Positions 3,104-14,652 of a stretch of DNA of 32,000 bases are shown here, in pieces (position 1 is the stretch's first letter; the number at the start of each line of letters is the position of its first letter). Made by a program: the position numbers and the translations under genes. The stretch lies in the NCBI RefSeq assembly GCF_000012805.1, contig NC_007484.1, positions 1,230,001 through 1,262,000 of the forward strand. The letters are read 5' to 3'. The notes below the pieces were generated by a model. The model had not been told where the DNA came from. It did not search any database and worked only from the letters and a program-made list of their open reading frames with translations. This DNA is from Nitrosococcus oceani ATCC 19707 (GTDB lineage Bacteria; Pseudomonadota; Gammaproteobacteria; Nitrosococcales; Nitrosococcaceae).

Positions 3104-6100
3104 ATGTTTTCAGCGTTTTTTATTGACCGGCCTAAGTTTGCCCTAGTTATATCGCTGGTCATGCTGCTGGTCGGCGGTATTGCCCTCAGCCTGATTCCCG
3201 TGGCTGAATTTCCTGAAATTACCCCGCCCCAGGTAACAGTATCGGCCAGCTATCCCGGCGCCAACGCCGAGGGTGTGGAGCAGTCGGTTGCTGTCCCCAT
3301 CGAGGAGCAAGTCAACGGCGTCGAGGGCATGAGCTATATGTCCTCAACCAGTTCCAGTGATGGCAGCTACCAGTTGAACATCACTTTCGAAGTCGGTACC
3401 GATGCAGATATCGCCGCGGTCAATGTGCAAAATCGGGTTGCCGTAGCCAATACCCAGTTGCCCCAGGAGGTCATCCGCCAGGGCCTGACCACCCGCAAGC
3501 AGTCCCCTAATATGTTGTTGATCGTCAATCTAATTTCACCCAAGGGTTCACGGGATAGCCTGTTTCTCAGTAACTATGCCTCGATTTATCTACAGAACCC
3601 CCTGGCGCGGATTTCTGGCGTGGGCGATGTTTCCCAATTTGGGGTCCAGGATTACGGTATGCGGGTGTGGCTCGACCCTGATCGGCTGACTGCGTTGGGT
3701 TTAACCGCAAGCGATGTTGTCAAGGCTATTGAGGAGCAGAATATTCAAGCGTCCGCTGGCAGCCTAGGGGCGCCACCATTCACCAAGGCGCCGCAATTCC
3801 AATATACCTTGCAGGCCAAGGGGCGGCTAGCAACGGTCGAGGAATTTGAGGATATTATTGTCCGGGCCAGTGCCGATGGTTCCCTTGTGCAGCTTAAGGA
3901 TATTGCTCGCCTTGAGTTGGGTTCGCAAAGCTATAACGCTATTTCCAAACTTAATAGCCAACCGGCAGCCTCCATAGTGGTCTATCAATCCCCAGGCGCC
4001 AATGCACTACAGGTTGCCAATCAGATCTACGCTGAGTTGGAACGCCTGGCGCAAAGCTTCCCCCCAGATATGGAATATCACATTCTGTACGATACCACTC
4101 AGGCGGTGCGGGCATCGGTACAGGAAGTCATCAAGACCTTGTTGATTACTTTTGTTTTGGTTGTGGCGGTAACCTTCCTGTTTCTGGCCGACTGGCGTTC
4201 GACCCTGATACCGGTTTGCGCGATTCCGGTTTCCCTGGTGGGCGCTTTCGCTGCCATGTACGTGTTGGGATTTTCTGCCAATATCATTACCTTGTTCGCC
4301 ATGATTCTGGCTATTGGTATCGTGGTTGATGATTCCATTGTCGTGGTGGAAAATGTCCAGCGTATTATGCGGGAGAATGCCCTAGAGGCGCGTGAGGCCA
4401 CCCGTCGCGCCATGGCCGAGATCACCGGGCCGGTCATTGCTACCACTCTGGTGCTGCTTGCTGTCTTCGTGCCGGTATCGTTTATGCCTGGTATCACCGG
4501 CCAGCTTTACCAGCAGTTCGCGGTAACTATTTCGGTGGCGGTTGCGATCTCCTCCCTCAATGCTTTAACCCTGTCACCCGCCCTGTGCCGGTTATTGCTT
4601 AAGCCTGATTCTGGCCAGACGCATGGGCTATTGCGCGCTTTCGCGTGGTTGGTGAACAGATTACGCAACGGTTATGTTCGGGTTTGTTCTCTGATGCTGC
4701 GCCATTTACGGATCTCGCTGCTGTTGGTGCTGACCTTCGTGATAGTCACCGTATTTTTGTTTCAGCGTGCGCCTAGCGGTTTTTTGCCGACCGAGGACAA
4801 GGGCGTACTAATGGTCAATGTGCAGCTACCAGACGGTGCTTCCCTGGCGCGCACAGAAGCCGTAATAGATGAGATAACCCAGATGACGCGCGATACTGCC
4901 GGTATCACTGATGTGATCTCGGTGACTGGTTTCAGTATTCTTGGCGGCGCGGCCTCTAATGCGGGCCTGGTTATTCCGATTCTTGCTCCTTGGGATGAGC
5001 GTAGCAGTCCTCAATTGCAATGGGAGCCTATTCTCGGCCATCTTAATGCCTCTTTGGCTAGCATCGCTGCCGCTGAAGCCTTCGCCTTTCCGCCGCCGCC
5101 GATCACGGGGCTAGGTACCGGTGGTGGTATCGAGGCGCAGCTGCAGGATCTCGGTGGCGGCAGCCCGCAAGAGTTGGCCGCCGCCATGGGTAGCCTAGTA
5201 TTCGCGGCTAACCAGCATCCGGCTTTGATGGGGGTGTTTAGCACCTACTCGGCTAGTGCGCCACAGCTCTATTTGGATATCGACCGTGAGCGGGCAAAAG
5301 TGCTCGGGGTTTCCATTGCTGATGTATTTACCACCCTGAGTGCTAATTTGAGTTCGCTCTATGTCAATGATTTCAATCTGTTTGGCAAAAGCTACCGGGT
5401 TATGGTGCAAGCCGAGGCCGAATACCGCAATGCTATTAAGGACATTGGCAATCTGTATGTGCGCAGTGGCCCTGGTGAAATGGTGCCGCTGCGAGCACTG
5501 ATCGACGTTGAACCCGTTTTGGGGCCGTTGTCGATTACCCGTTACAATCAATTTAAGTCGGCCGCCATCACTGGTAATCCGGCTCCTGGTTACAGCTCCG
5601 GCGAGGCCATCGCCGCGCTGGAGCAGGTCGCCGCCGAGGCTCTGCCCGAAGGTTACCGCATCGAGTGGACCGGTACCTCCAAGGAAGAGCTGGCCGCTGG
5701 TGCGCTGGTCATTTACATTTTTGCACTTGCTATCGTTTTCGCTTATTTATTTTTGGTGGCGCAGTATGAATCCTGGACTTTGCCCTTGGGGGTGATAAGT
5801 TCGGTGGTTTTCGCTCTGTTCGGTGCTCTCTTGCCGGTGGTAATGTTGCCGTTTCTGGACAATAATCTGTATGCGCAAATCGGTATCGTGATGCTGATCG
5901 GCTTGGCTAGCAAGAGTGCGATTCTGATCGTCGAATTTGCCAAGGAGCGGCGCGAGCAGGGGCTGAGTACCCATGAGGCGGCGCTGACGGCGGCACGCCT
6001 GCGATTTCGAGCAGTATTAATGACGGCCTTGTCGTTTATTCTCGGTGTCAGTCCGTTGTTGTTCGCTAGTGGCGCTGGTGCCGCCAGTCGAACTTCAGTG

Positions 6101-6283
6101 GGCTTCGTAGTGTTTGGCGGTATGCTTGCCGCCACGGTGATCGGGATTTTCTTTATCCCGGTGCTCCATGTGTTGTATCAGGACATACGTCTATCCGTCC
6201 CCCGTGTCTGGCAGAGGCCTACCCTGAGACCAGCAAAACTAGTGCCAAAAGAGACGGAGCAATCCGATGATGAGCAGGGTTAA
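3104..6283 (+). CDS. RND multidrug/hydrophobe efflux permease (AcrB/HAE1-like, 1059 aa)
   Basis: The N-terminus [53 protein letters not shown] is the canonical AcrB-family start. Two large periplasmic loops and a 12-TM layout are present. The conserved [12 protein letters not shown] motif is in TM4. Confidence 0.95.
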
Positions 6284-6598
6284 AAGGTAGCCCGAAGCTC
6301 TACGGTACGGCGTTTAATCGCCCCTGCCGTTTTACAGTAAAGCTATATTCCTCCTCCCCCTAGGAAGTCATTGCACCTCTTTAGATCTCTTCAAAATAAA
6401 ATTTACGAATTTTAGACTAAACTGGAATTCATAGAGATCGGTTCAGATTAGATCGGTTTGACAAATCACTTTTTTGTTCTGATGGTGAGTAGATGGCTAT
6501 CGTTGCTTTAAGGCTTTATTGAGGAGAGAAAGTCTACAGGGAAAGGGTAGCAAATTTCTTTTTAGTATTCTTTATCTGCTGTGTTTATCGAGGTGACT

Positions 6599-7330
6599 AT
6601 GCTGCATATTATGAGGAGAATCCAAGATCTGAAAAGTTTCACGCTACATGCTAAAGATGGAGAGCTGGGTAGACTCCGAGAAGTTTTTTTCGATGATTCC
6701 TCATGGAGAGTGCGCTATTTAGTTGTGGAAACGGGTCACTGGCTCGTAGGACGTCAGGTGCTGATTACTCCCGAGGCGTTAGGCTCTATCCATGAAGAAA
6801 AATGGACTCTGCAAATTGAATTAACCCGAGAGCAAATAGAGACTAGCCCGCTCATGGATACGAAACAGCCACTATTATCACGGCAACAGGAAGAGGAATA
6901 TCACCGGCACTATAATTGGTTGCCTTACTGGAGAAGTGGTTTGTTGGGTTATCTGGGTCGGAGCTATGAAAACAAAGACAAGGGGGAAGAAACCGAAGAT
7001 CCCCATTTGCGTAGCAGTGACGAAGTCTCAGGGTACCAGGTTGAGGCCCGCGATGGTGAGGTTGGATATGTCGAGGATTTTGTCATCGACGAGAAGGATT
7101 GGGTCATTCGGTATTTGGAAATTAGCACCCATCGCGGGTGGTTTGGAAAGAAAATCCTCCTGGCGCCCACCTGGATTGAACAAGTTGATTGGGAGGACCG
7201 CAAGGTGCGGGTAGATCTTTTGCGCGAAGTTATTCGCTCAGCGCCAGAATACGAAGAGGGGCAGCTTATTGGCCGCGACTATGAAATTAACCTTTATAGC
7301 CACTATGGCCGCAACCAATATTGGGAATGA
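6599..7330 (+). CDS. tandem PRC-barrel domain protein
   Basis: Two copies of the PRC-barrel pattern: LKSFTLHAKDGELGRLREVFFDDSSWRVRYLVVETG...VLITPEAL and VSGYQVEARDGEVGYVEDFVIDEKDWVIRYLEIST...ILLAPTWI. I prefer the ATG at 6599, preceded by GAGGTG, over the track GTG at 6581. The start is uncertain by a few codons. Confidence 0.8.
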   Translation: MLHIMRRIQDLKSFTLHAKDGELGRLREVFFDDSSWRVRYLVVETGHWLVGRQVLITPEALGSIHEEKWTLQIELTREQIETSPLMDTKQPLLSRQQEEEYHRHYNWLPYWRSGLLGYLGRSYENKDKGEETEDPHLRSSDEVSGYQVEARDGEVGYVEDFVIDEKDWVIRYLEISTHRGWFGKKILLAPTWIEQVDWEDRKVRVDLLREVIRSAPEYEEGQLIGRDYEINLYSHYGRNQYWE

Positions 7331-7419
7331 AAAATAGATTTGAGAAGCGCCTTAATTCAATTAAACCCTCATCCAATCAGGGAATAAGAGAAGAGGTTAT
7401 TTGATGCACGCTAATTCAA

Positions 7420-7443
7420 AGAGGGGGATGACAATCCCCCTCT
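7420..7443. terminator. perfect 9-bp-stem hairpin between convergent genes (probable terminator)
   Basis: AGAGGGGGA-TGACAA-TCCCCCTCT lies between the PRC-barrel gene (+) and the carbonic anhydrase gene (-). On the minus strand it is followed by TTTGAATT. There is no long U-run on the plus side. Confidence 0.5.
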
Positions 7444-7495
7444 AGCAATGCCATTAACTACGCGGGTAAAAGCTCTTTAATTTTTTTGGCAAGTG

Positions 7496-8443
7496 CTAAA
7501 AATCGCTGTTGTCAACGGTATCAAAGTAAACCTGACGTCCGTTTAATGGCTGGGTAGGGCGGTTGTTATTAGAGCAGCAGACATGCTGCGTGATATTTCT
7601 ATATTTTTCTATTTGCTCTGCTGACATCTCGATTGGTTCTCTGAGTATTATCCAGCGGACTCCTTCTGTGCAAGGGGGGGTGGTAAATGAACCTCGATAG
7701 CGATAGGAGCGCCGATCTGAAGGAAGCGCGTCCATAGCATTGAAAGAACTTTCAGCTGGGAGGAAAACTTCTTGCCCTATATTTTTTGGCATATTATCCC
7801 ATATTTCTTTTAAGGCTTGATTTTCCTCCCCCTGGCGGATTAACAAGGTAACGACGACGACTTCTCCGTCTATGCTAGTATGCACTAAATGCATTTCTAT
7901 ATTGAAATGAGCGCCGAAAGCTAAGGTATGTTCGCTAACGCTATGAAAATGAAATTGCTGGAGATCATATTCCCTCTCATCACCATCGATTGTGATAAAA
8001 CTGCCTGAATCGTATGTCCCTTGAAGTGTGTTGTGGCCATTATTAACAATATGAACGGAGGTTGGTTGATAAAAGTATCGGACGTCGGGCAAATCTGCGG
8101 GGATAACTTCCATCGGCTTAATATCGATGGGGGACTGCTCCATACCATTGGAACAAAGCTGAAAATCAGGATCTAATTCGCCCCATTTATCCGGCCCATT
8201 AATTGGATTTTCGTAACCGAAATCACCTTCAGAACTCTTGTTTTTCTTGTTTTGATGCGTATTCTCGGATTCTTGCACTAATTCAACACTAGCATTGATA
8301 AGTAGATTCTGAGAGGTCTGGTTTCGATCTGCGTTAGCGGGACTAATACCTAATGCTAAAAGTATTATTAATGATATTAATTGTGTTTTTTTTTCACAAT
8401 TATTACCTCCTTCTTTCTTTATCCTGGAATATTTAGTCAGCAT
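7496..8443 (-). CDS. secreted alpha-class carbonic anhydrase
   Basis: Signal-like LISLIILLALGISPANA. Alpha-CA signatures are present: QSPIDI, LQQFHFHSVSEHT (His ligands), EMHLVH, YRGSFTTPPCTEGVRWIIL. Confidence 0.9.
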   Translation of the reverse strand: MLTKYSRIKKEGGNNCEKKTQLISLIILLALGISPANADRNQTSQNLLINASVELVQESENTHQNKKNKSSEGDFGYENPINGPDKWGELDPDFQLCSNGMEQSPIDIKPMEVIPADLPDVRYFYQPTSVHIVNNGHNTLQGTYDSGSFITIDGDEREYDLQQFHFHSVSEHTLAFGAHFNIEMHLVHTSIDGEVVVVTLLIRQGEENQALKEIWDNMPKNIGQEVFLPAESSFNAMDALPSDRRSYRYRGSFTTPPCTEGVRWIILREPIEMSAEQIEKYRNITQHVCCSNNNRPTQPLNGRQVYFDTVDNSDF

Positions 8444-8803
8444 AAATTACCTTAAATGCTACCGATCGTTATTTCTATATAGTTAGATATGCTGAATTTT
8501 AAAAATAAGCTGCTAGACATAGCGCTGTTATGAGCAGCATTTTCTGGTGGAAGCGAATTTCATGCCATTTTAATTGAGATTATAGATAATCATCTAATTC
8601 CAATTAAAAAAAGAGATAAAGGTGATTTTCTGACATGACAGGATGAGGGAAATTAGTGGATTTGCACCACCTATGTGGGGGGATTTCAACTGTATTAGGC
8701 TAAATAAATTTTGCCAGGAGATGGCGGCGTCCTTGCCTGCCTACATATAGGGTATGTTTTCCTGTTTTTTACAAAAGTGCTAGCGATAATTATGAATAAT
8801 TCT

Positions 8804-9169
8804 TCATCCTGGCACAGGTAATCCCATAATGGATTCAGAGTGCATTTTCTCTTGCTCCAGGATTTGTTCTATCATTTGCTGCATTACATCCATCCTCTGC
8901 TCTACGTTTTGCCTCCATTGCTGGGTATCTTGAGGTCTATTTTCGTGACTCAGCATGTGATGCATCTCCTGCATTTGCTCAAGCATCAATTGCATGTGTT
9001 CTCTCATGAGTCTATTGCGTTCATTCCCCTTTGCCGCGTGTGCCTGATCCATTACGGCTTCCATCTTTTGAAGACGTTGCTGCATACGTTCCATATTTAT
9101 CTGTGGTTCGGCGCCATAAGCAGGCCCTATGGCAAGTATGATGACAGGGATTATGTAATAAGCTTTCAT
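8804..9169 (-). CDS. secreted Met/His/Gln-rich helical small protein (121 aa); possible periplasmic metal (Cu) binding protein or chaperone
   Basis: Sec signal MKAYYIIPVIILAIGPAYGA|EP. The mature part has Met at i/i+3/i+4 spacing (MREHMQLMLEQMQEMHHM, MERMQQRLQKMEAVM, RMDVMQQM). I count 16 Met and 6 His. No family was recognised by eye. Confidence 0.65.
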   Translation of the reverse strand: MKAYYIIPVIILAIGPAYGAEPQINMERMQQRLQKMEAVMDQAHAAKGNERNRLMREHMQLMLEQMQEMHHMLSHENRPQDTQQWRQNVEQRMDVMQQMIEQILEQEKMHSESIMGLPVPG

Positions 9170-9750
9170 ACCAGAACTACCTCATTATTAGTATGGGATC
9201 AAAGTAAAGCATAGTCATTTTATAGGATTATTGTCTATTTATCACATTGAGTTTAATGTGTAAACGCAACTCTGTGGTGCTGATAAGAGGGTAAGCTGCG
9301 GTAGCATGGATGCTTTATCGTATCGACCCAAAGCAAGGAAAAGTATCTTCAAAAAGAACGATACTAAATTTAAGCGTTCAAAAAAGCCGCTCATAATAGA
9401 GCTTTTAGGAATAGGGAGTAGTATAAGTATGAAGCCAAGGGGTGGAGAGGGCCTATAAACTTTTCTCTAAGGAGAAAAAACAGATTTGTGAAAAACGCCA
9501 TCTTGCCTAAATACCTCGAAACTTTCCGAGAAAGTTATAGGCTCAATAGTTATGAGCATGGCAATTCGTGTTGCGCCACCTAAGACACTGGGCATTTACT
9601 GCAAAACGGCTTCTATTGTTGGCAGGGGGATCTTTATCGATCATTGGATGGTGGTGTTGCGGTAGGTGCCCTTACCTAATACCAAGGTCCCCTCACCTCA
9701 ATCGGTTACAAAAACTGTTCAAAACATTGAATAAAGAAGGAGTTCATTAT

Positions 9751-10365
9751 ATGAGTGCCCCCAAAAATTTTTCCCGCTGGCGTCCTCATCCTTGGCATGG
9801 GTTGGAAACGGGCTTGTATCCACCAGAACGTGTCTATGCTTATATTGAAATCACTCCCTTTGATTTGATGAAATATGAGATCGATAAAAATACGGGCTAT
9901 CTCCGGGTTGATCGCCCTCAGCGTAGTTCTTCCCTTCCCCCCTCCCTGTATGGTTTTATTCCAAGGACCTATTGCGGAGATCTGGTGGCAAGCCTTTGTG
10001 AGGGAGCGGAGGAGGGGGATGAAGATCCCTTGGATATTTGTGTGCTCAGTGAAAGGCCCATTAATCGTTCAGAAGTAATTTTGAGTGCTAGAGTAGTAGG
10101 GGGGCTACAAACCATTGATCAAGGACAGATCGATGACAAGATTATCGCCGTACTAGAGAAAGACGATTCTTTGAATACTGCTAAGGATATTTCCGATCTT
10201 CCGGTTATCTTAATTGAACGGCTGCGCCACTATTTTTCTACCTATAAGATGATACCAGGCGAGACTTCGCTCGTTTCCCTAGGCGAAATTTATGGCCGCG
10301 AACATGCTTTCCAAGTGGTGGCCGCATCCATGGAGGATTATGCTAAAGAATATACCCGTTCATAG
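9751..10365 (+). CDS. ppa: inorganic pyrophosphatase (family I)
   Basis: PHPWHGLE...[28 protein letters not shown]...[16 protein letters not shown]...[20 protein letters not shown]. The ATG at 9751 has GAAGGAG 8-9 nt upstream. The 61 extra N-terminal codons of the track ORF (from 9568) look non-coding. Confidence 0.9.
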
Positions 10366-10997
10366 CTGGTGCAGACGGCTGGCTTATACAGGGACATCGT
10401 AAAAAATGCACCGCAATACCTAATTCGCCATTGCTAAAGGAAATTTTTGAAATAGTCTCTAAGCTCGATTTATACATTTTTTAGCGGATTTTCGGCTCAA
10501 CAAACTTATCCCCTATAGTAGATCGCCCAATGTTCATCGAGGTGATTTTTAAGGAGTGTTGTGCCTAATAGACATAGAGGTACAGCATCAGTATCTGAAT
10601 AAGGCTATCGGTTGCTTGTCATCCTAGAGCTATTATTCCTAAGTCATTTAGCGCCTTAATACTAGTGCGTTATGTCCACCGATCTTGCACAAATTCGAAC
10701 TAATCATATTGAGTGTTAGAGCGGTTCACCAGCTTTATTGGTAAAAAAGCGCAAGAGCAGTGAATAGCATTCCCCATTTTTCCACAAAAAATTCTTTAAA
10801 TCCTTCACTTACTGAATTAGGTGACGATAACTCGGTAAACCGTGGAGTGGCTACGGCCTTGAGACGGAGGCTAAGATCTTGGTAATTATGAGAAATAGTT
10901 ATCGGAAAAAGCCAAGCAAGGGTTAAATACTAGGAACAGAATATATAAATATTCCGATCTATACTCATAATATCAAGCTCTGTTGAGGTGAAGCATA

Positions 10998-11216
10998 ATG
11001 ATTACCGTCAATGAAAGATCTTTTGAATTAGTCCGCGAAGCGCGGGAAGAAGCCTTTAGAATGAATATTCCTGAGCAAACAATGAATATTTTTTTTATAT
11101 TTTATCTGGCTAATTACGCAGCAAAGTTAGAAAAAACGCTAAGTCACTCTATTGAAGAAAAAACTGGAGAGATGATAGAAAGAAGTAGAGAGATGTCTTT
11201 GAGATCTCCGGATTAA
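10998..11216 (+). CDS. hypothetical protein (72 aa)
   Basis: ATG preceded by GAGGTGA with ~6 nt spacing. It lies in the AT-rich islet. No recognisable family. Confidence 0.35.
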   Translation: MITVNERSFELVREAREEAFRMNIPEQTMNIFFIFYLANYAAKLEKTLSHSIEEKTGEMIERSREMSLRSPD

Positions 11217-12075
11217 CGTTTCTTTTGCCACTTCTCGTTCTACTTTCTTAGGGAAAACCTGCTGGGATTCTGCAAAGGGAGTTACGTAACATTTGATTTA
11301 TTGGCGCCCTATTGTGGAAGTATCCAAAATTATTCGCATTGCGCCACCACCAGGTGAGCGGGCGGTTTTCGAGGCAACCTGAGAGTGCGGCAATACTGTC
11401 TGACCTGCAGTCTCCGTCGAGGCGGACAGAGGCAGATATATTGATGAAAGCGAGTTTTCCCAGGATATGCTGCGCCCCATGGCGAGGCGTTCAAGGCTTT
11501 AGTGCTAAAAACTGGCAGGCCAAAGGCTTGCATCCATACAATGGCGCATTCATCGGTAAAATGTTGCTCAGCGCTGCTTTAAAGAGAAGTTAGGCCCAGA
11601 GTTTGAATATTTCTTACCAATATGAAGCCCAAAAAAGGGGGCGGGCGGGGATTTTACCACTCGGGGCCGGGACGCAGCGCCGCTGAGAGCAAGGATATAT
11701 TTTCCTGCTTATTGGCTACTGGCAGATCGATTTATTATGTGAGTTGTAAGTTTAGGGTTAATATTATTATTTTTCTCGCAAGCACCACTGATCTATGTTT
11801 CCAGTACTGACCATATAAAGACTTTGTGTCCGCCTCCCTAGTTTATGCCGATCCCTTCAACCAAATAATAGCTCCTCAAACCACATTGTCAGATCCTACC
11901 ACGCTAAAATCCCCATTTTACTCTGCATTTGCTATAAATCCCTCTCAAAAACATCCCCCTATACGAAAGACCTGCACTCTTAAGTTCTCAGTGTTGGTGC
12001 CGTTATTTTTGCCGCGCCCTGCACGCAGGGCACATGCGCTTGCATATATAAACGCATAATAATACGGCTATTATC

Positions 12076-12963
12076 ATGAAAAATAAGCTACGAACCCATT
12101 ACACTAATCTCCAGGTTATTGAAAATGCTAGCGATGCGGTAATCAAGGGTGCGTATAAGTACCTTTCTCAGAAGTGGCATCCTGATAAAAACCCAGGGTG
12201 TCGTGAGAAAGCCGAACAAATCTTGCGCATTATAAATGCGGCATACGAGGTCTTATCAGATCCTGAAAAGCGCCGAGTGCATGATGAGTGGATTTACAAG
12301 CAACGGAAAAAGCAAGAGGACGCGCAAAGTAAAAAGGAAGGAAATAAAGGGGAAAACCAAGAGCACGAACGAACACAAGAAGAAATAGAAAGGGAAAGAG
12401 CACGGCAAGAGTGTGAAAGGCAGCAAGCGGTAGCACGTGGGTACGAGAGAAGGGCAACAGGAAAAAGTTTTAACAATGTGGGAGCGACGCTAATCACCCT
12501 TGCTATATACGGTTATCTGATGCTGCAAATCGATCCTCGGCCGGGAGCGTCCTTTGGCTTCCTAGTTGGACAGTTCATCGGTGCAACTACTCCCATACTA
12601 GTTTTTGGAATGACACTAGGTCTTTTGCTGTTTGGAATGGGGCGCTTCTTCATTGGTACACGCGGGCCGAGGTATTCAACTGTGGTATTCATTAGCACTG
12701 TTCTCGTATGTGCAACCCTAGTTGGAGTACGGTATGTGGTTGGGCCTAGCCAGAAGACGTTCACCTCCACACCGTCTTCCTATGATAAATCGCTTGGAGA
12801 CTATGAAAAAAGATATCTCAAAGCCAATTCTCTGCACGCAGAGAAAATGCAAGTGCCTTTTTATACTCCGCCCATTACAAGTGCTCCAGGAAGACGCAAT
12901 TGTGAGTTTAAATCCGTTATGACAGATGAAGATTACCGGGCGTGCGAGATTACACCACCATAA
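12076..12963 (+). CDS. J-domain (DnaJ-like, HPD motif) multi-pass membrane protein
   Basis: N-terminal J domain: THYTNLQVIENASDAVIKGAYKYLSQKWHPDKNPG...INAAYEVLSDPEKRRVHDEW. A K/E/R/Q-rich linker follows. Then hydrophobic segments ATLITLAIYGYLMLQI, FGFLVGQFIGATTPILVFGMTLGLLLFGMG, VVFISTVLVCATLVGVRYVV. The soluble tail has NCEF...RACEI. Confidence 0.85.
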   Translation: MKNKLRTHYTNLQVIENASDAVIKGAYKYLSQKWHPDKNPGCREKAEQILRIINAAYEVLSDPEKRRVHDEWIYKQRKKQEDAQSKKEGNKGENQEHERTQEEIERERARQECERQQAVARGYERRATGKSFNNVGATLITLAIYGYLMLQIDPRPGASFGFLVGQFIGATTPILVFGMTLGLLLFGMGRFFIGTRGPRYSTVVFISTVLVCATLVGVRYVVGPSQKTFTSTPSSYDKSLGDYEKRYLKANSLHAEKMQVPFYTPPITSAPGRRNCEFKSVMTDEDYRACEITPP

Positions 12964-13089
12964 GCCCGTTACTCAATGAATGAAGGAGTTCTAGCTCCCG
13001 TAAAAATAACAATAAGTTACTGATAACCAATTTGAGCTCATTTCCGGATTCTTATCAAAGGGCCGCTTTAAAGCCTGCGAGGTATTAAA

Positions 13090-13674
13090 ATGAACAGTGA
13101 ATTAAAACGCCTGATCAAAATAGCTGGCACTGCTCTCGAAGCTGAAGACAGGTTTCTACGTGAAGCTATTGCGAAAAACCGAACTGCCTACCCCAGCGAA
13201 AAATGCGGAATTTTAAGAAACAACAATGAACGCTACTACCAGTTTATTATCTGGCGTGCCCTTGTATCGTCTTTTCCATTTACCGCTAGAATTGAAATTC
13301 AATCACACGATCTTGTACTTAACTATCCAGACGATGCATCTAAGTGGTTTGCAGTTATAGAAATGAAGCGGTGGATGAGTTCTACGGGTGAGGTGGAAAT
13401 TCCAGGAATTATTCGAGACATCAACGATAAACTTCGCCCTTCTCATGCTAAAAACACTCTCATGCTAATTTTCTCAGCAGGACCATCTGGCACAATAAAC
13501 ACTGAATTTGGTTGGCTATCAAAGCGGCTTGGAATTTCTCAGGTAGAGGACTGCTCCGCGTGGGAAAATTATTATTTTCCCACAGTGAATAGGGTGGGGG
13601 AAGATGTTGATTTTTGGTTAGCTGGCTACCAGGTTAACCGTGCCAATATGGCGTCGGAGAATTATGAAACTTGA
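13090..13674 (+). CDS. hypothetical protein with a PD-(D/E)xK nuclease-like core (194 aa)
   Basis: GAGGT Shine-Dalgarno 6 nt upstream of the ATG. Motif order is helix with Glu (NNERYYQFIIWRAL), strand SHDLVLNY (Asp), strand WFAVIEMKRW (E-x-K), helix IPGIIRDINDKL, strand TLMLIFSAG. The fold call is by-eye pattern matching only. Confidence 0.6.
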   Translation: MNSELKRLIKIAGTALEAEDRFLREAIAKNRTAYPSEKCGILRNNNERYYQFIIWRALVSSFPFTARIEIQSHDLVLNYPDDASKWFAVIEMKRWMSSTGEVEIPGIIRDINDKLRPSHAKNTLMLIFSAGPSGTINTEFGWLSKRLGISQVEDCSAWENYYFPTVNRVGEDVDFWLAGYQVNRANMASENYET

Positions 13675-14002
13675 AGAAGCAATAAGCATAATGAAATCAG
13701 CTTACTGATGATATAGATCCTAAAGCAGGAGAACCATTTCCGGAAGATAGCCCCTATCATTATCCCGATACTATTCGCGCTCTTTTTTTCTCTTCTTTTC
13801 GCAATAAATAACATACATGTTGATAATACTAAAAACCCACTTGCAGGCACTAGCAGATAAAATCGTATTCAGGGCGGGATAGCGAAAGTGCTAGTCCTAT
13901 AAGCTCAATCAAGTCCTGCTACGCATCAAGGACTTTCTAGGCGCTTAACAGGTTGCAAGGGGTGCAAGACCATGAAAATAGTTCTGAACGGCGTCTGATA
14001 AA

Positions 14003-14555
14003 TCAAATACCGAGTCTTATTACTGTATTTTGAACACAGAACGCCGCAAAAAATTTTAGTCCCCCACCACCTTGGGTCCCTCCCCCCAGCCTTTCAGAAA
14101 ACCACCCCCCCTTCGGATTTTGCTTTTCAGATCTACGCAGGGAAACCCAAGCACCGCAAATTTTTCCAACCCACACTAGTCCCATCCGCTTTAGATGTTC
14201 ATCCACCCGTGCCGAGAGGGTAGTGGCTTCCTGGGTGAGTTGCGGCAGCGACTCGGCGTAGCGCTTTTCCAGCTCCTTGACCCGACCAGCGAGCGCCTTG
14301 GGTGACCCGCTTCATCTCAGCGATGATTTGCGCCCCGATGGCGGTCCGTTCCCGGACAAAGTAGTGGGCGATGATAAGTATTGGGGGGATAAGGTCGGTC
14401 TTGTATTTCTTTTTATAGATGACCAGATCCAGAGTCTCCTTGGTTTTCTTGCCCCTTTTCTCCGCCAGGCGGCTGATGGTGGTGTTGATCTGGTCGCTGA
14501 TTTCCTTATTGCCCCTGAACTTGAGCATGTCGGCAAAGGGGCCGCCCGCGGGCAT
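14003..14555 (-). pseudogene. hsdM: 3'-terminal remnant of a type I restriction-modification methyltransferase gene (hsdM-like), 5'-truncated, frameshifted and internally deleted
   Basis: Two minus-strand frames read ...RGKKTKETLDLVIYKKKYKTDLIPPILIIAHYFVRERTAIGAQIIAEMKRV and then, after a frame change near 14285-14295, KALAGRVKELEKRYAESLPQLTQEATTLSARVDEHLKRMGLVW. From memory, both resemble the conserved C-terminal extension of large HsdM proteins (DLIPPxLxxARYF ... LAxRVKELExRYxxPLPxL...HLKKMG). No methylase catalytic domain is present upstream, where the tRNA-Asn gene lies instead. Confidence 0.55.
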
Positions 14556-14576: not shown

Positions 14577-14652
14577 TGGCTCCCCGGGACGGGCTCGAAC
14601 CGCCGACCTAGTGATTAACAGTCACCCGCTCTACCAACTGAGCTACCGGGGA
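14577..14652 (-). tRNA. tRNA-Asn (anticodon GTT), CCA encoded
   Basis: The reverse complement reads TCCCCGGTAGCTCAGTTGGTAGAGCGGGTGACTGTTAATCACTAGGTCGGCGGTTCGAGCCCGTCCCGGGGAGCCA. It forms a cloverleaf with acceptor TCCCCGG/CCGGGGA, anticodon loop CTGTTAA and T-loop GGTTCGAGCC. Confidence 0.9.

Follow-up and report, generated by a model that had tools for sequence, protein, structure and literature searches.

Two probably independent accessory genes, for a predicted membrane-anchored J-domain protein and a PD-(D/E)xK-like protein, in a decayed tRNA-Asn islet of Nitrosococcus oceani

A small islet of gene debris next to a tRNA-Asn gene of Nitrosococcus oceani ATCC 19707 was examined, in which two long open reading frames (ORFs) survive. 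The DNA analyzed, referred to below as the window, is 32,000 nucleotides (nt) long and corresponds to positions 1,230,001 to 1,262,000 of the forward strand of contig NC_007484.1 (assembly GCF_000012805.1); positions are those of the window unless another sequence is named. The upstream ORF is Noc_1135 (ABA57639.1), annotated as 'Heat shock protein DnaJ-like', and the downstream ORF is 100% identical to Noc_1136 (ABA57640.1), a protein of 194 amino acids (aa). Both ORFs were found exactly where a first-pass annotation, made without database searches, had placed them (Table 1). That annotation had joined the two into a candidate defence module, in which a J-domain sensor would be coupled to a nuclease effector. 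The analysis reported here favors a different reading, namely that Noc_1135 and Noc_1136 are probably two independent accessory genes.

Table 1. Features of the islet and its right-hand boundary, in window positions (strand given where one applies)
Feature	Position	Strand	Basis
Block common to N. wardiae, ~2.6 kb, 81-88% nucleotide identity	11589-14169		blastn vs L023
Inverted repeat GCCCTGC-AC-GCAGGGC	12016-12031		Sequence
Noc_1135, predicted 295-aa class III (type C) J-domain protein	12076-12963	+	J domain, linker, hydrophobic helices, tail
J domain, aa 8-70	12097-12285	+	PF00226, E=1.7e-18
Hydrophobic region, aa 134-224, 3-4 predicted membrane helices	12475-12747	+	Kyte-Doolittle, pairwise alignment
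Cys276-x13-Cys290 tail motif (CEFKSVMTDEDYRAC)	12901-12945	+	Also in P0064, P0065
Shine-Dalgarno sequence GAGGT, 7 nt 5' of the 194-aa ORF ATG	13078-13082	+	Sequence
Noc_1136, 194-aa stand-alone PD-(D/E)xK-like protein	13090-13674	+	Alignments, AlphaFold2, weak profile matches
Third-gene remnant, frameshifted, truncated by deletion	13664-13845	+	tblastn of N. wardiae 225-aa protein
hsdM C-terminal remnant, frameshifted	about 14171-14429	-	tblastn vs plasmids, type I M subunits
tRNA-Asn (GTT), complete gene, 3' end toward islet	14577-14652	-	ARAGORN

Noc_1135 begins with a canonical J domain carrying the HPD tripeptide, as had been read from its translation. The match to PF00226 scores 66.9 bits (cut-off 27.8) over profile positions 2-63 of 63, and H35-P36-D37 (nt 12178-12186) is invariant among seven aligned relatives and lies between helices 20-33 and 40-61 of the AlphaFold2 model (predicted local distance difference test, pLDDT, 87-92). 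No match to the zinc finger (PF00684) or the DnaJ C-terminal domain (PF01556) was found in the protein, and TIGR02349 was matched at a sub-threshold 61 bits (cut-off 377). With the J domain as its sole match and neither of these other domains, Noc_1135 is therefore assigned to class III and not to the class I or class II DnaJ proteins. The charged linker of about 60 residues that had been described is present (aa 73-132; K/E/R/Q-rich and helical) and is followed by a hydrophobic region. About four helices had been counted in this region; the region itself was confirmed, with three to four helices by hydropathy and three long ones, at low confidence, in an AlphaFold2 model that is unreliable beyond the J domain (mean pLDDT 57.7). 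The cysteine pair of the tail was also recovered and is kept in the only two proteins that resemble Noc_1135 over its full length, P0064 of N. wardiae (68% identity) and the metagenomic P0065 (34% identity). Judged from its sequence, Noc_1135 is thus a newly noted, putatively membrane-anchored class III J protein. Apart from a 20-aa Cys motif, its membrane and tail part has no homologues beyond Nitrosococcus. When the C-terminal 170 aa were used as a query, only the protein's own N. oceani fragment was returned; as even the N. wardiae protein was missed, the word index of that search is insensitive here. The J-domain clade, by comparison, is tight (60-76% identity), is fused to many different membrane tails (among them RDD, CD225, DUF805, and DUF1036), and occurs in unrelated settings: in Rhodanobacter, for example, it lies on the chromosome with two-component genes on either side, and in Haliea it is part of a mobile element. 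Noc_1135 has no dedicated Hsp70 gene such as hscC next to it.

The second ORF has its own Shine-Dalgarno sequence, as noted in the first pass, and the product contains the motifs SHDLVL, AVIEMK, and LMLIFS, which had been taken to follow the order of a PD-(D/E)xK nuclease core. These motifs map onto D74 (13309-13311) and E91-M-K93 (13360-13368), the key residues of the protein along with E47 and E69. In an alignment of 105 sequences with a mean column identity of 18%, D74 is invariant and L16, E19, D20, G40, E47, Q51, E91, K93, D110, and F163 are conserved in at least 90%, so that the D and E-x-K positions proved to be conserved as proposed. The AlphaFold2 model of Noc_1136 is confident (pLDDT 94.5; predicted template modeling score 0.89) and places helix 47-61, strands 65-70, 73-79, and 82-94, helix 104-115, and strand 122-131 in the order alpha-beta-beta-beta-alpha-beta, with D74 opening strand 2 and E91-x-K93 in strand 3. 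This agrees with the PD-(D/E)xK core in the order of the secondary-structure elements, which is what the comparison covered. The family forms 63 clusters among 5.8 billion sequences; in a set of 1.84 billion it has 301 representatives (E<=1e-3), and nearly all members are 170-200 aa long without domain fusions. A Pfam scan of the 105 members gave matches to PDDEXK_9 (11 members, best E 7.9e-4), Mrr_cat (3), and HSDR_N (2), all of which are PD-(D/E)xK families and all of which were matched below threshold; each of the remaining Pfam families matched one member. Noc_1136 itself matched no family in Pfam, NCBIfam, PADLOC, or PHROG. Foldseek comparison of its model with BFVD returned weak matches to a PD-(D/E)XK nuclease (E 5.5e-3), an endonuclease, and an Mrr-domain protein (template modeling (TM) score 0.41). 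Noc_1136 keeps all conserved family residues and ranks first of 106 sequences against a family hidden Markov model (HMM) built without it. From the model and these profile matches, we predict a PD-(D/E)xK-type fold for Noc_1136 with good confidence, and the 194-aa family is likely an unnamed branch of the PD-(D/E)xK kind that is new here.

The neighborhoods of both families were then compared. The 194-aa family was represented by 16 independent contexts, which comprise nine genome loci and seven contig groups (L010/11, L012/13, L014, L015-18 with pKAZ2, L019/20, L021/22, and L029). A tblastn search with the J domains of Nitrosococcus and of Escherichia coli DnaJ detected no J domain near the family in any of the 16, and an all-against-all comparison of the neighboring ORFs yielded no conserved neighbor of any kind. 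Four J-clade contexts, L024, L025, and L027 among them, contained no 194-aa homologue. The first-named of these (L024 1-4520, ENA ERZ27309208 k141_558255) holds P0065, which shares the Cys tail and is preceded by a second J-domain gene. Homologues of Noc_1135 and Noc_1136 were found together only in N. wardiae, within one block. The coupling of a J-domain sensor to a nuclease effector is not supported by this distribution, a lack of co-occurrence in other genomes being an outcome that the first pass had named as refuting it, and the conserved J-domain or membrane partner that such coupling predicts did not emerge from the neighborhood comparison. In the absence of pairing outside Nitrosococcus, the two genes are most likely independent accessory genes and not a two-gene defence system.

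The settings of the 194-aa family point to movement as a single gene. Homologues with more than 40% identity lie in variable regions with an integrase or transposase, with neighbors that include PIN_12, WYL-WCX, ClpP and AAA, DUF4145, and SUKH-type genes, whereas more distant ones (31-41% identity) lie among metabolic and housekeeping genes (YdjC, GT2, FAA hydrolase, glpX, mnmE, and AhpC). The proposed 'classic defence island' setting therefore holds only in part for the family, in a survey that carries no statistical background for enrichment in defence or mobile genes. No methyltransferase gene was found beside the 194-aa gene, either in the window or in the homologue contexts that were examined. 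One homologue (in JGI 3300005989 Ga0075154_10000125, within L019 4685-7860) is the first ORF past a divergent tyrosine recombinase, as is that of L020. It is followed by an attC-like site (GTCTAAC...GTTAGGC, 6579-6669) that recurs nearly identically 1.2 kb on, at 7755-7854, and a similar site is present in L010 (7025-7117). The L019 homologue is accordingly read from its sequence as probably a single-gene integron cassette. Rfam gave no match at the attC-like sites and their DNA folding energies were no better than those of shuffled sequences, so the cassette call has two supports only, the recurring core motifs and the integrase setting. No family member was found in the phage collection searched, and the sole match in the plasmid collection was to the conjugative IncC plasmid pKAZ2 (KR827391.1, L028), where the gene is unannotated. 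The Acinetobacter-type homologue P0030 is present on more than 100 contigs; its conserved segment (L015-L018 and pKAZ2) contains a three-gene tyrosine-recombinase unit and insertion sequence (IS) elements and is transposon-like. As a separate observation, homologue P0017 (49% identity; L014 1441-6564) lies in an island that starts at a tRNA-Asn gene, and elements that carry the 194-aa family may integrate repeatedly at tRNA-Asn.

As described in the first pass, Noc_1135 and Noc_1136 are the only intact genes in an AT-rich stretch of debris: between 10366 and 14576, the next longest ORF (118 aa) is the hsdM remnant, and the G+C content is 0.41-0.46 versus 0.50-0.55 in the flanks. Six-frame translation of the debris at 10366-12075 gave no match to NCBIfam. 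The hsdM remnant that had been named as a boundary is real: annotated type I M subunits match it at their C-termini with 40-53% identity (E as low as 8e-12). No hsdS or hsdR remnant was identified. The hsdM remnant directly adjoins the tRNA-Asn gene, which faces the islet with its 3' end as had been noted but is a complete gene and not a fragment; a duplicate of the tRNA-Asn 3' end was looked for within the window and not found. On the left, the islet is bordered by an inorganic pyrophosphatase gene that ends at 10365. Its maximal ORF (9568-10365, + strand, 265 aa) matches Pfam only from aa 92 onward, so translation probably starts at an internal Met, which would make the N-terminal extension an artefact of ORF calling. 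Low G+C content (0.38-0.46) already begins about 4 kb to the left of the debris zone, in the stretch 6000-10400, which includes genes that are intact and look ordinary: a 249-aa ORF (6581-7330), a 315-aa ORF (7496-8443; a carbonic anhydrase by eye only), and the pyrophosphatase gene. Low G+C content alone is thus insufficient to delimit the islet.

The block shared with N. wardiae is broken in that species by an IS and an insertion of about 225 bp. The N. wardiae island encodes an integrase, AlpA, PrimPol, D5_N, BrnT, HicAB, and HsdR, along with insertion sequences; within the window, no remnants of its integrase, PrimPol, D5, or toxin-antitoxin genes were found. The N. wardiae block is preceded by a P4-like integrative element, with the integrase, AlpA, PrimPol, and D5_N, and by two IS copies (L023 1-7481). 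The ~225-bp insertion (L023 7757-7979) holds a duplicated J-gene leader and splits the inverted repeat from the start of the J gene. This repeat, which the first pass had suggested could be an operator, does exist upstream of Noc_1135, but repeats of its kind occur at chance frequency (3 distinct ones in the islet versus 1.8 +/- 1.7 in shuffles), and its N. wardiae counterpart has a mismatch in one arm and an unconserved position. A repeat finder detected no longer inverted repeats, and the operator role was rejected.

Selection was assessed as the ratio of nonsynonymous to synonymous substitution rates (dN/dS) between window positions 12076-13674 and L023 8001-9636. The J domain (dN/dS 0.135) is clearly under purifying selection; values are higher in the linker (0.43), the membrane region (0.32, plus 10-aa indels), and the tail (0.55) of Noc_1135. 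The synonymous rate differs 3.5-fold between the adjacent genes (dS 0.32 for the J gene versus 0.09 for the 194-aa gene), which suggests that the two genes differ in history, for instance through a recent exchange of the nuclease gene, or that constraint acts at the nucleotide level.

Several observations weigh against the reading of Noc_1135 and Noc_1136 as independent accessory genes, or against the nuclease assignment within it. The two genes share one orientation with 126 nt between them, and since no terminator-like site was found in that spacer, co-transcription is possible. Both ORFs are the sole intact survivors amid decay in two species, and their retention could reflect joint selection. 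In the metagenomic relative, P0065 is likewise followed by a nuclease-type gene, a 91-aa SNase fragment, and then by a 261-aa protein with a weak match to the CAP12/Pycsar-type TIR (E=9e-4). The dN/dS of the 194-aa gene is 0.83, a noisy value obtained from only 44 differences, and could indicate relaxed selection on a non-working gene. The nuclease fold is unproven in that every Pfam match of the family is below threshold; Foldseek comparison with the Protein Data Bank (PDB) gave no match at E<1e-3 (best TM score 0.34), in contrast to the weak BFVD matches, and HMM profile searches against PDB sequences returned de novo TIM barrels and amylases, none of them relevant. The candidates listed by Foldseek in the PDB (Alba/Pop6, a methyltransferase, and GNAT-like proteins) were discarded as noise at TM scores of 0.34 or below.

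Among the alternatives, the one that survives best is that both ORFs are leftovers on their way to becoming pseudogenes, with no current function in N. oceani. The surroundings fit, as they consist of the hsdM remnant, a broken third gene, and no other sizeable ORF; so do the dN/dS values of the 194-aa gene, the J tail, and the linker, the several indels, and the lack of convincing promoter-like sites upstream. In N. wardiae, the 194-aa gene also lacks an ATG start and is annotated by NCBI as encoding only 140 aa. Against this, both frames are open throughout, one with 295 codons and the other with 194, purifying selection acts on the J domain, and Noc_1136, which keeps every conserved residue and ranks first in its family HMM, looks like an intact gene. 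A high dN/dS is also typical of conflict genes, and the evolution of Noc_1136 within Nitrosococcus is either relaxed or diversifying. We regard loss of function of both genes as unlikely.

A further alternative arises from the third gene, of which N. oceani retains a remnant with 86% identity to an N. wardiae protein, spread over two frames (tblastn) and cut by a deletion between 13845 and 14023. In N. wardiae, this gene is intact (L023 9626-10303, 225 aa) and overlaps the 194-aa gene by 11 nt; in N. oceani, its ATG at 13664 overlaps the Noc_1136 stop codon. The 225-aa protein contains a helix-turn-helix (HTH)-like segment, with a PHROG match to a phage D5-like regulator at aa 60-126, and ends in a very acidic tail. 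The ancestral unit might accordingly have been the 194-aa nuclease together with an overlapping regulator or antitoxin-like inhibitor, the J gene being a bystander and the partner having been lost in N. oceani. A small downstream ORF is tightly spaced or overlapping in several other homologues as well (4 nt in L015-L018), but these ORFs are homologous neither to one another nor to the 225-aa protein, and Noc_1136 has stayed intact though the partner was destroyed, which implies that the partner is not needed for its tolerance. Such a unit is rather improbable. The weakest alternative is the coupled defence system of two genes, or of three with the lost one, in which the J protein would link DnaK to infection sensing and control the nuclease: it can call on the adjacency and shared orientation of the genes without a terminator, their retention in two Nitrosococcus species, the island setting, the hsdM/HsdR, toxin-antitoxin, and integrase-AlpA-PrimPol-D5 genes nearby in N. 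wardiae, the blank PADLOC result that would make it undescribed, and the chaperone-linked precedent of host DnaJ mediating phage sensing by bNACHT25 (PMC12169576), but it is made very improbable by the lack of co-occurrence in the 16 family and four J-clade contexts, by a putative sensor part that is orphan sequence with indels even between the two species, by the apparent single-gene cassette of one 194-aa homologue, and by the hint of different histories in the dS values.

We therefore retain as the probable reading that Noc_1135 and Noc_1136, which survive in a decayed tRNA-Asn islet, are accessory genes independent of each other. Under this interpretation, the two would have become neighbors in an ancestral Nitrosococcus mobile island. 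Noc_1135 would be anchored to the inner membrane by its lineage-specific hydrophobic region and, as expected from its family, its cytoplasmic HPD-containing J domain would recruit and stimulate host DnaK there. Since the 194-aa family moves as a single gene, at least once in an apparent integron cassette, Noc_1136 would act alone, presumably as a solitary Mg2+-dependent DNA endonuclease without a cognate methyltransferase. As it travels without a methyltransferase or immunity partner, the guess that coheres best is that its activity is modification-dependent (type IV-like) or structure-specific. The third gene, with its HTH segment and acidic tail and its translational overlap with Noc_1136, has been destroyed in N. 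oceani. A bolder extension, which we consider doubtful, is that the 194-aa family comprises undescribed minimal single-gene restriction-like nucleases that are independent of methyltransferases, owe their spread to integron cassettes and integrase islands, and provide resistance to phages or plasmids alone, and that in Nitrosococcus one of them was secondarily wired to a membrane J protein and an HTH/acidic-tail partner.

Were the pair a conserved module, it would be the first defence system to carry a J-domain adaptor for DnaK of its own, and the evidence against such a module spares cloning work on the two-gene idea. Left over is a rare, confidently modeled family of about 180 aa for which Pfam, NCBIfam, PADLOC, and PHROG have no family and no closely similar structure has been solved. 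Minimal solo nucleases would be cheap candidates for single-gene defence screens and for establishing how small a functional restriction-like enzyme can be.

Membrane-anchored class III (type C) J proteins of bacteria include E. coli DjlA and DjlB/DjlC. Like these, Noc_1135 has a single HPD-containing J domain and no G/F region, zinc finger, or substrate-binding domain, and by analogy with DjlA-type proteins it is predicted to be tethered to the membrane by hydrophobic helices and expected to localize DnaK-type Hsp70 activity. Unlike DjlA, in which an N-terminal transmembrane segment precedes a C-terminal J domain, Noc_1135 has its J domain at the N-terminus and three to four helices toward the C-terminus; the NCBIfam DjlA model matches it at only E=0.0022, and its membrane and tail part is orphan sequence with the C-x13-C motif. 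The Pfam PD-(D/E)xK families closest to Noc_1136 are PDDEXK_9 (PF08011) and Mrr_cat (PF04471). As in PD-(D/E)xK nucleases, the family has D74, an E-x-K in the third strand, and a Glu in the preceding helix; it differs from them by two additions, a conserved helix at the N-terminus (E19/D20) and an extension of two strands at the C-terminus. Noc_1136 also lacks the fused DNA-recognition, ATPase, or winged-helix domains of Mrr and of AAA-ATPase-linked PDDEXK_9 proteins and, unlike type II restriction-modification enzymes, neither it nor the homologues examined have an adjacent cognate methyltransferase.

The expectation that no named defence system would match held for both proteins: PADLOC-DB v2 has no family for either, with scattered noise only among 56 family members. 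A literature search for a defence component that is a system-encoded J-domain protein returned none, the nearest case being host DnaJ with bNACHT25, whose phage sensing is mediated by DnaJ (PMC12169576). That case illustrates that phage sensing can involve a J-domain co-chaperone. In contrast to the Noc_1135 locus, bNACHT25 is a NACHT protein that uses the housekeeping DnaJ and no system-encoded J protein; neither a NACHT nor a STAND gene is present at the Noc_1135/Noc_1136 locus. Integron cassettes are known to harbor a store of single-gene phage-defence functions (bioRxiv 10.1101/2024.07.02.601719; PMC12614218). Although the N. oceani copy lies outside any integron, the 194-aa gene resembles such cassettes in gene layout, being small and self-contained, and its homologue in the metagenomic locus L019 lies between an integrase and an attC-like site that is repeated.

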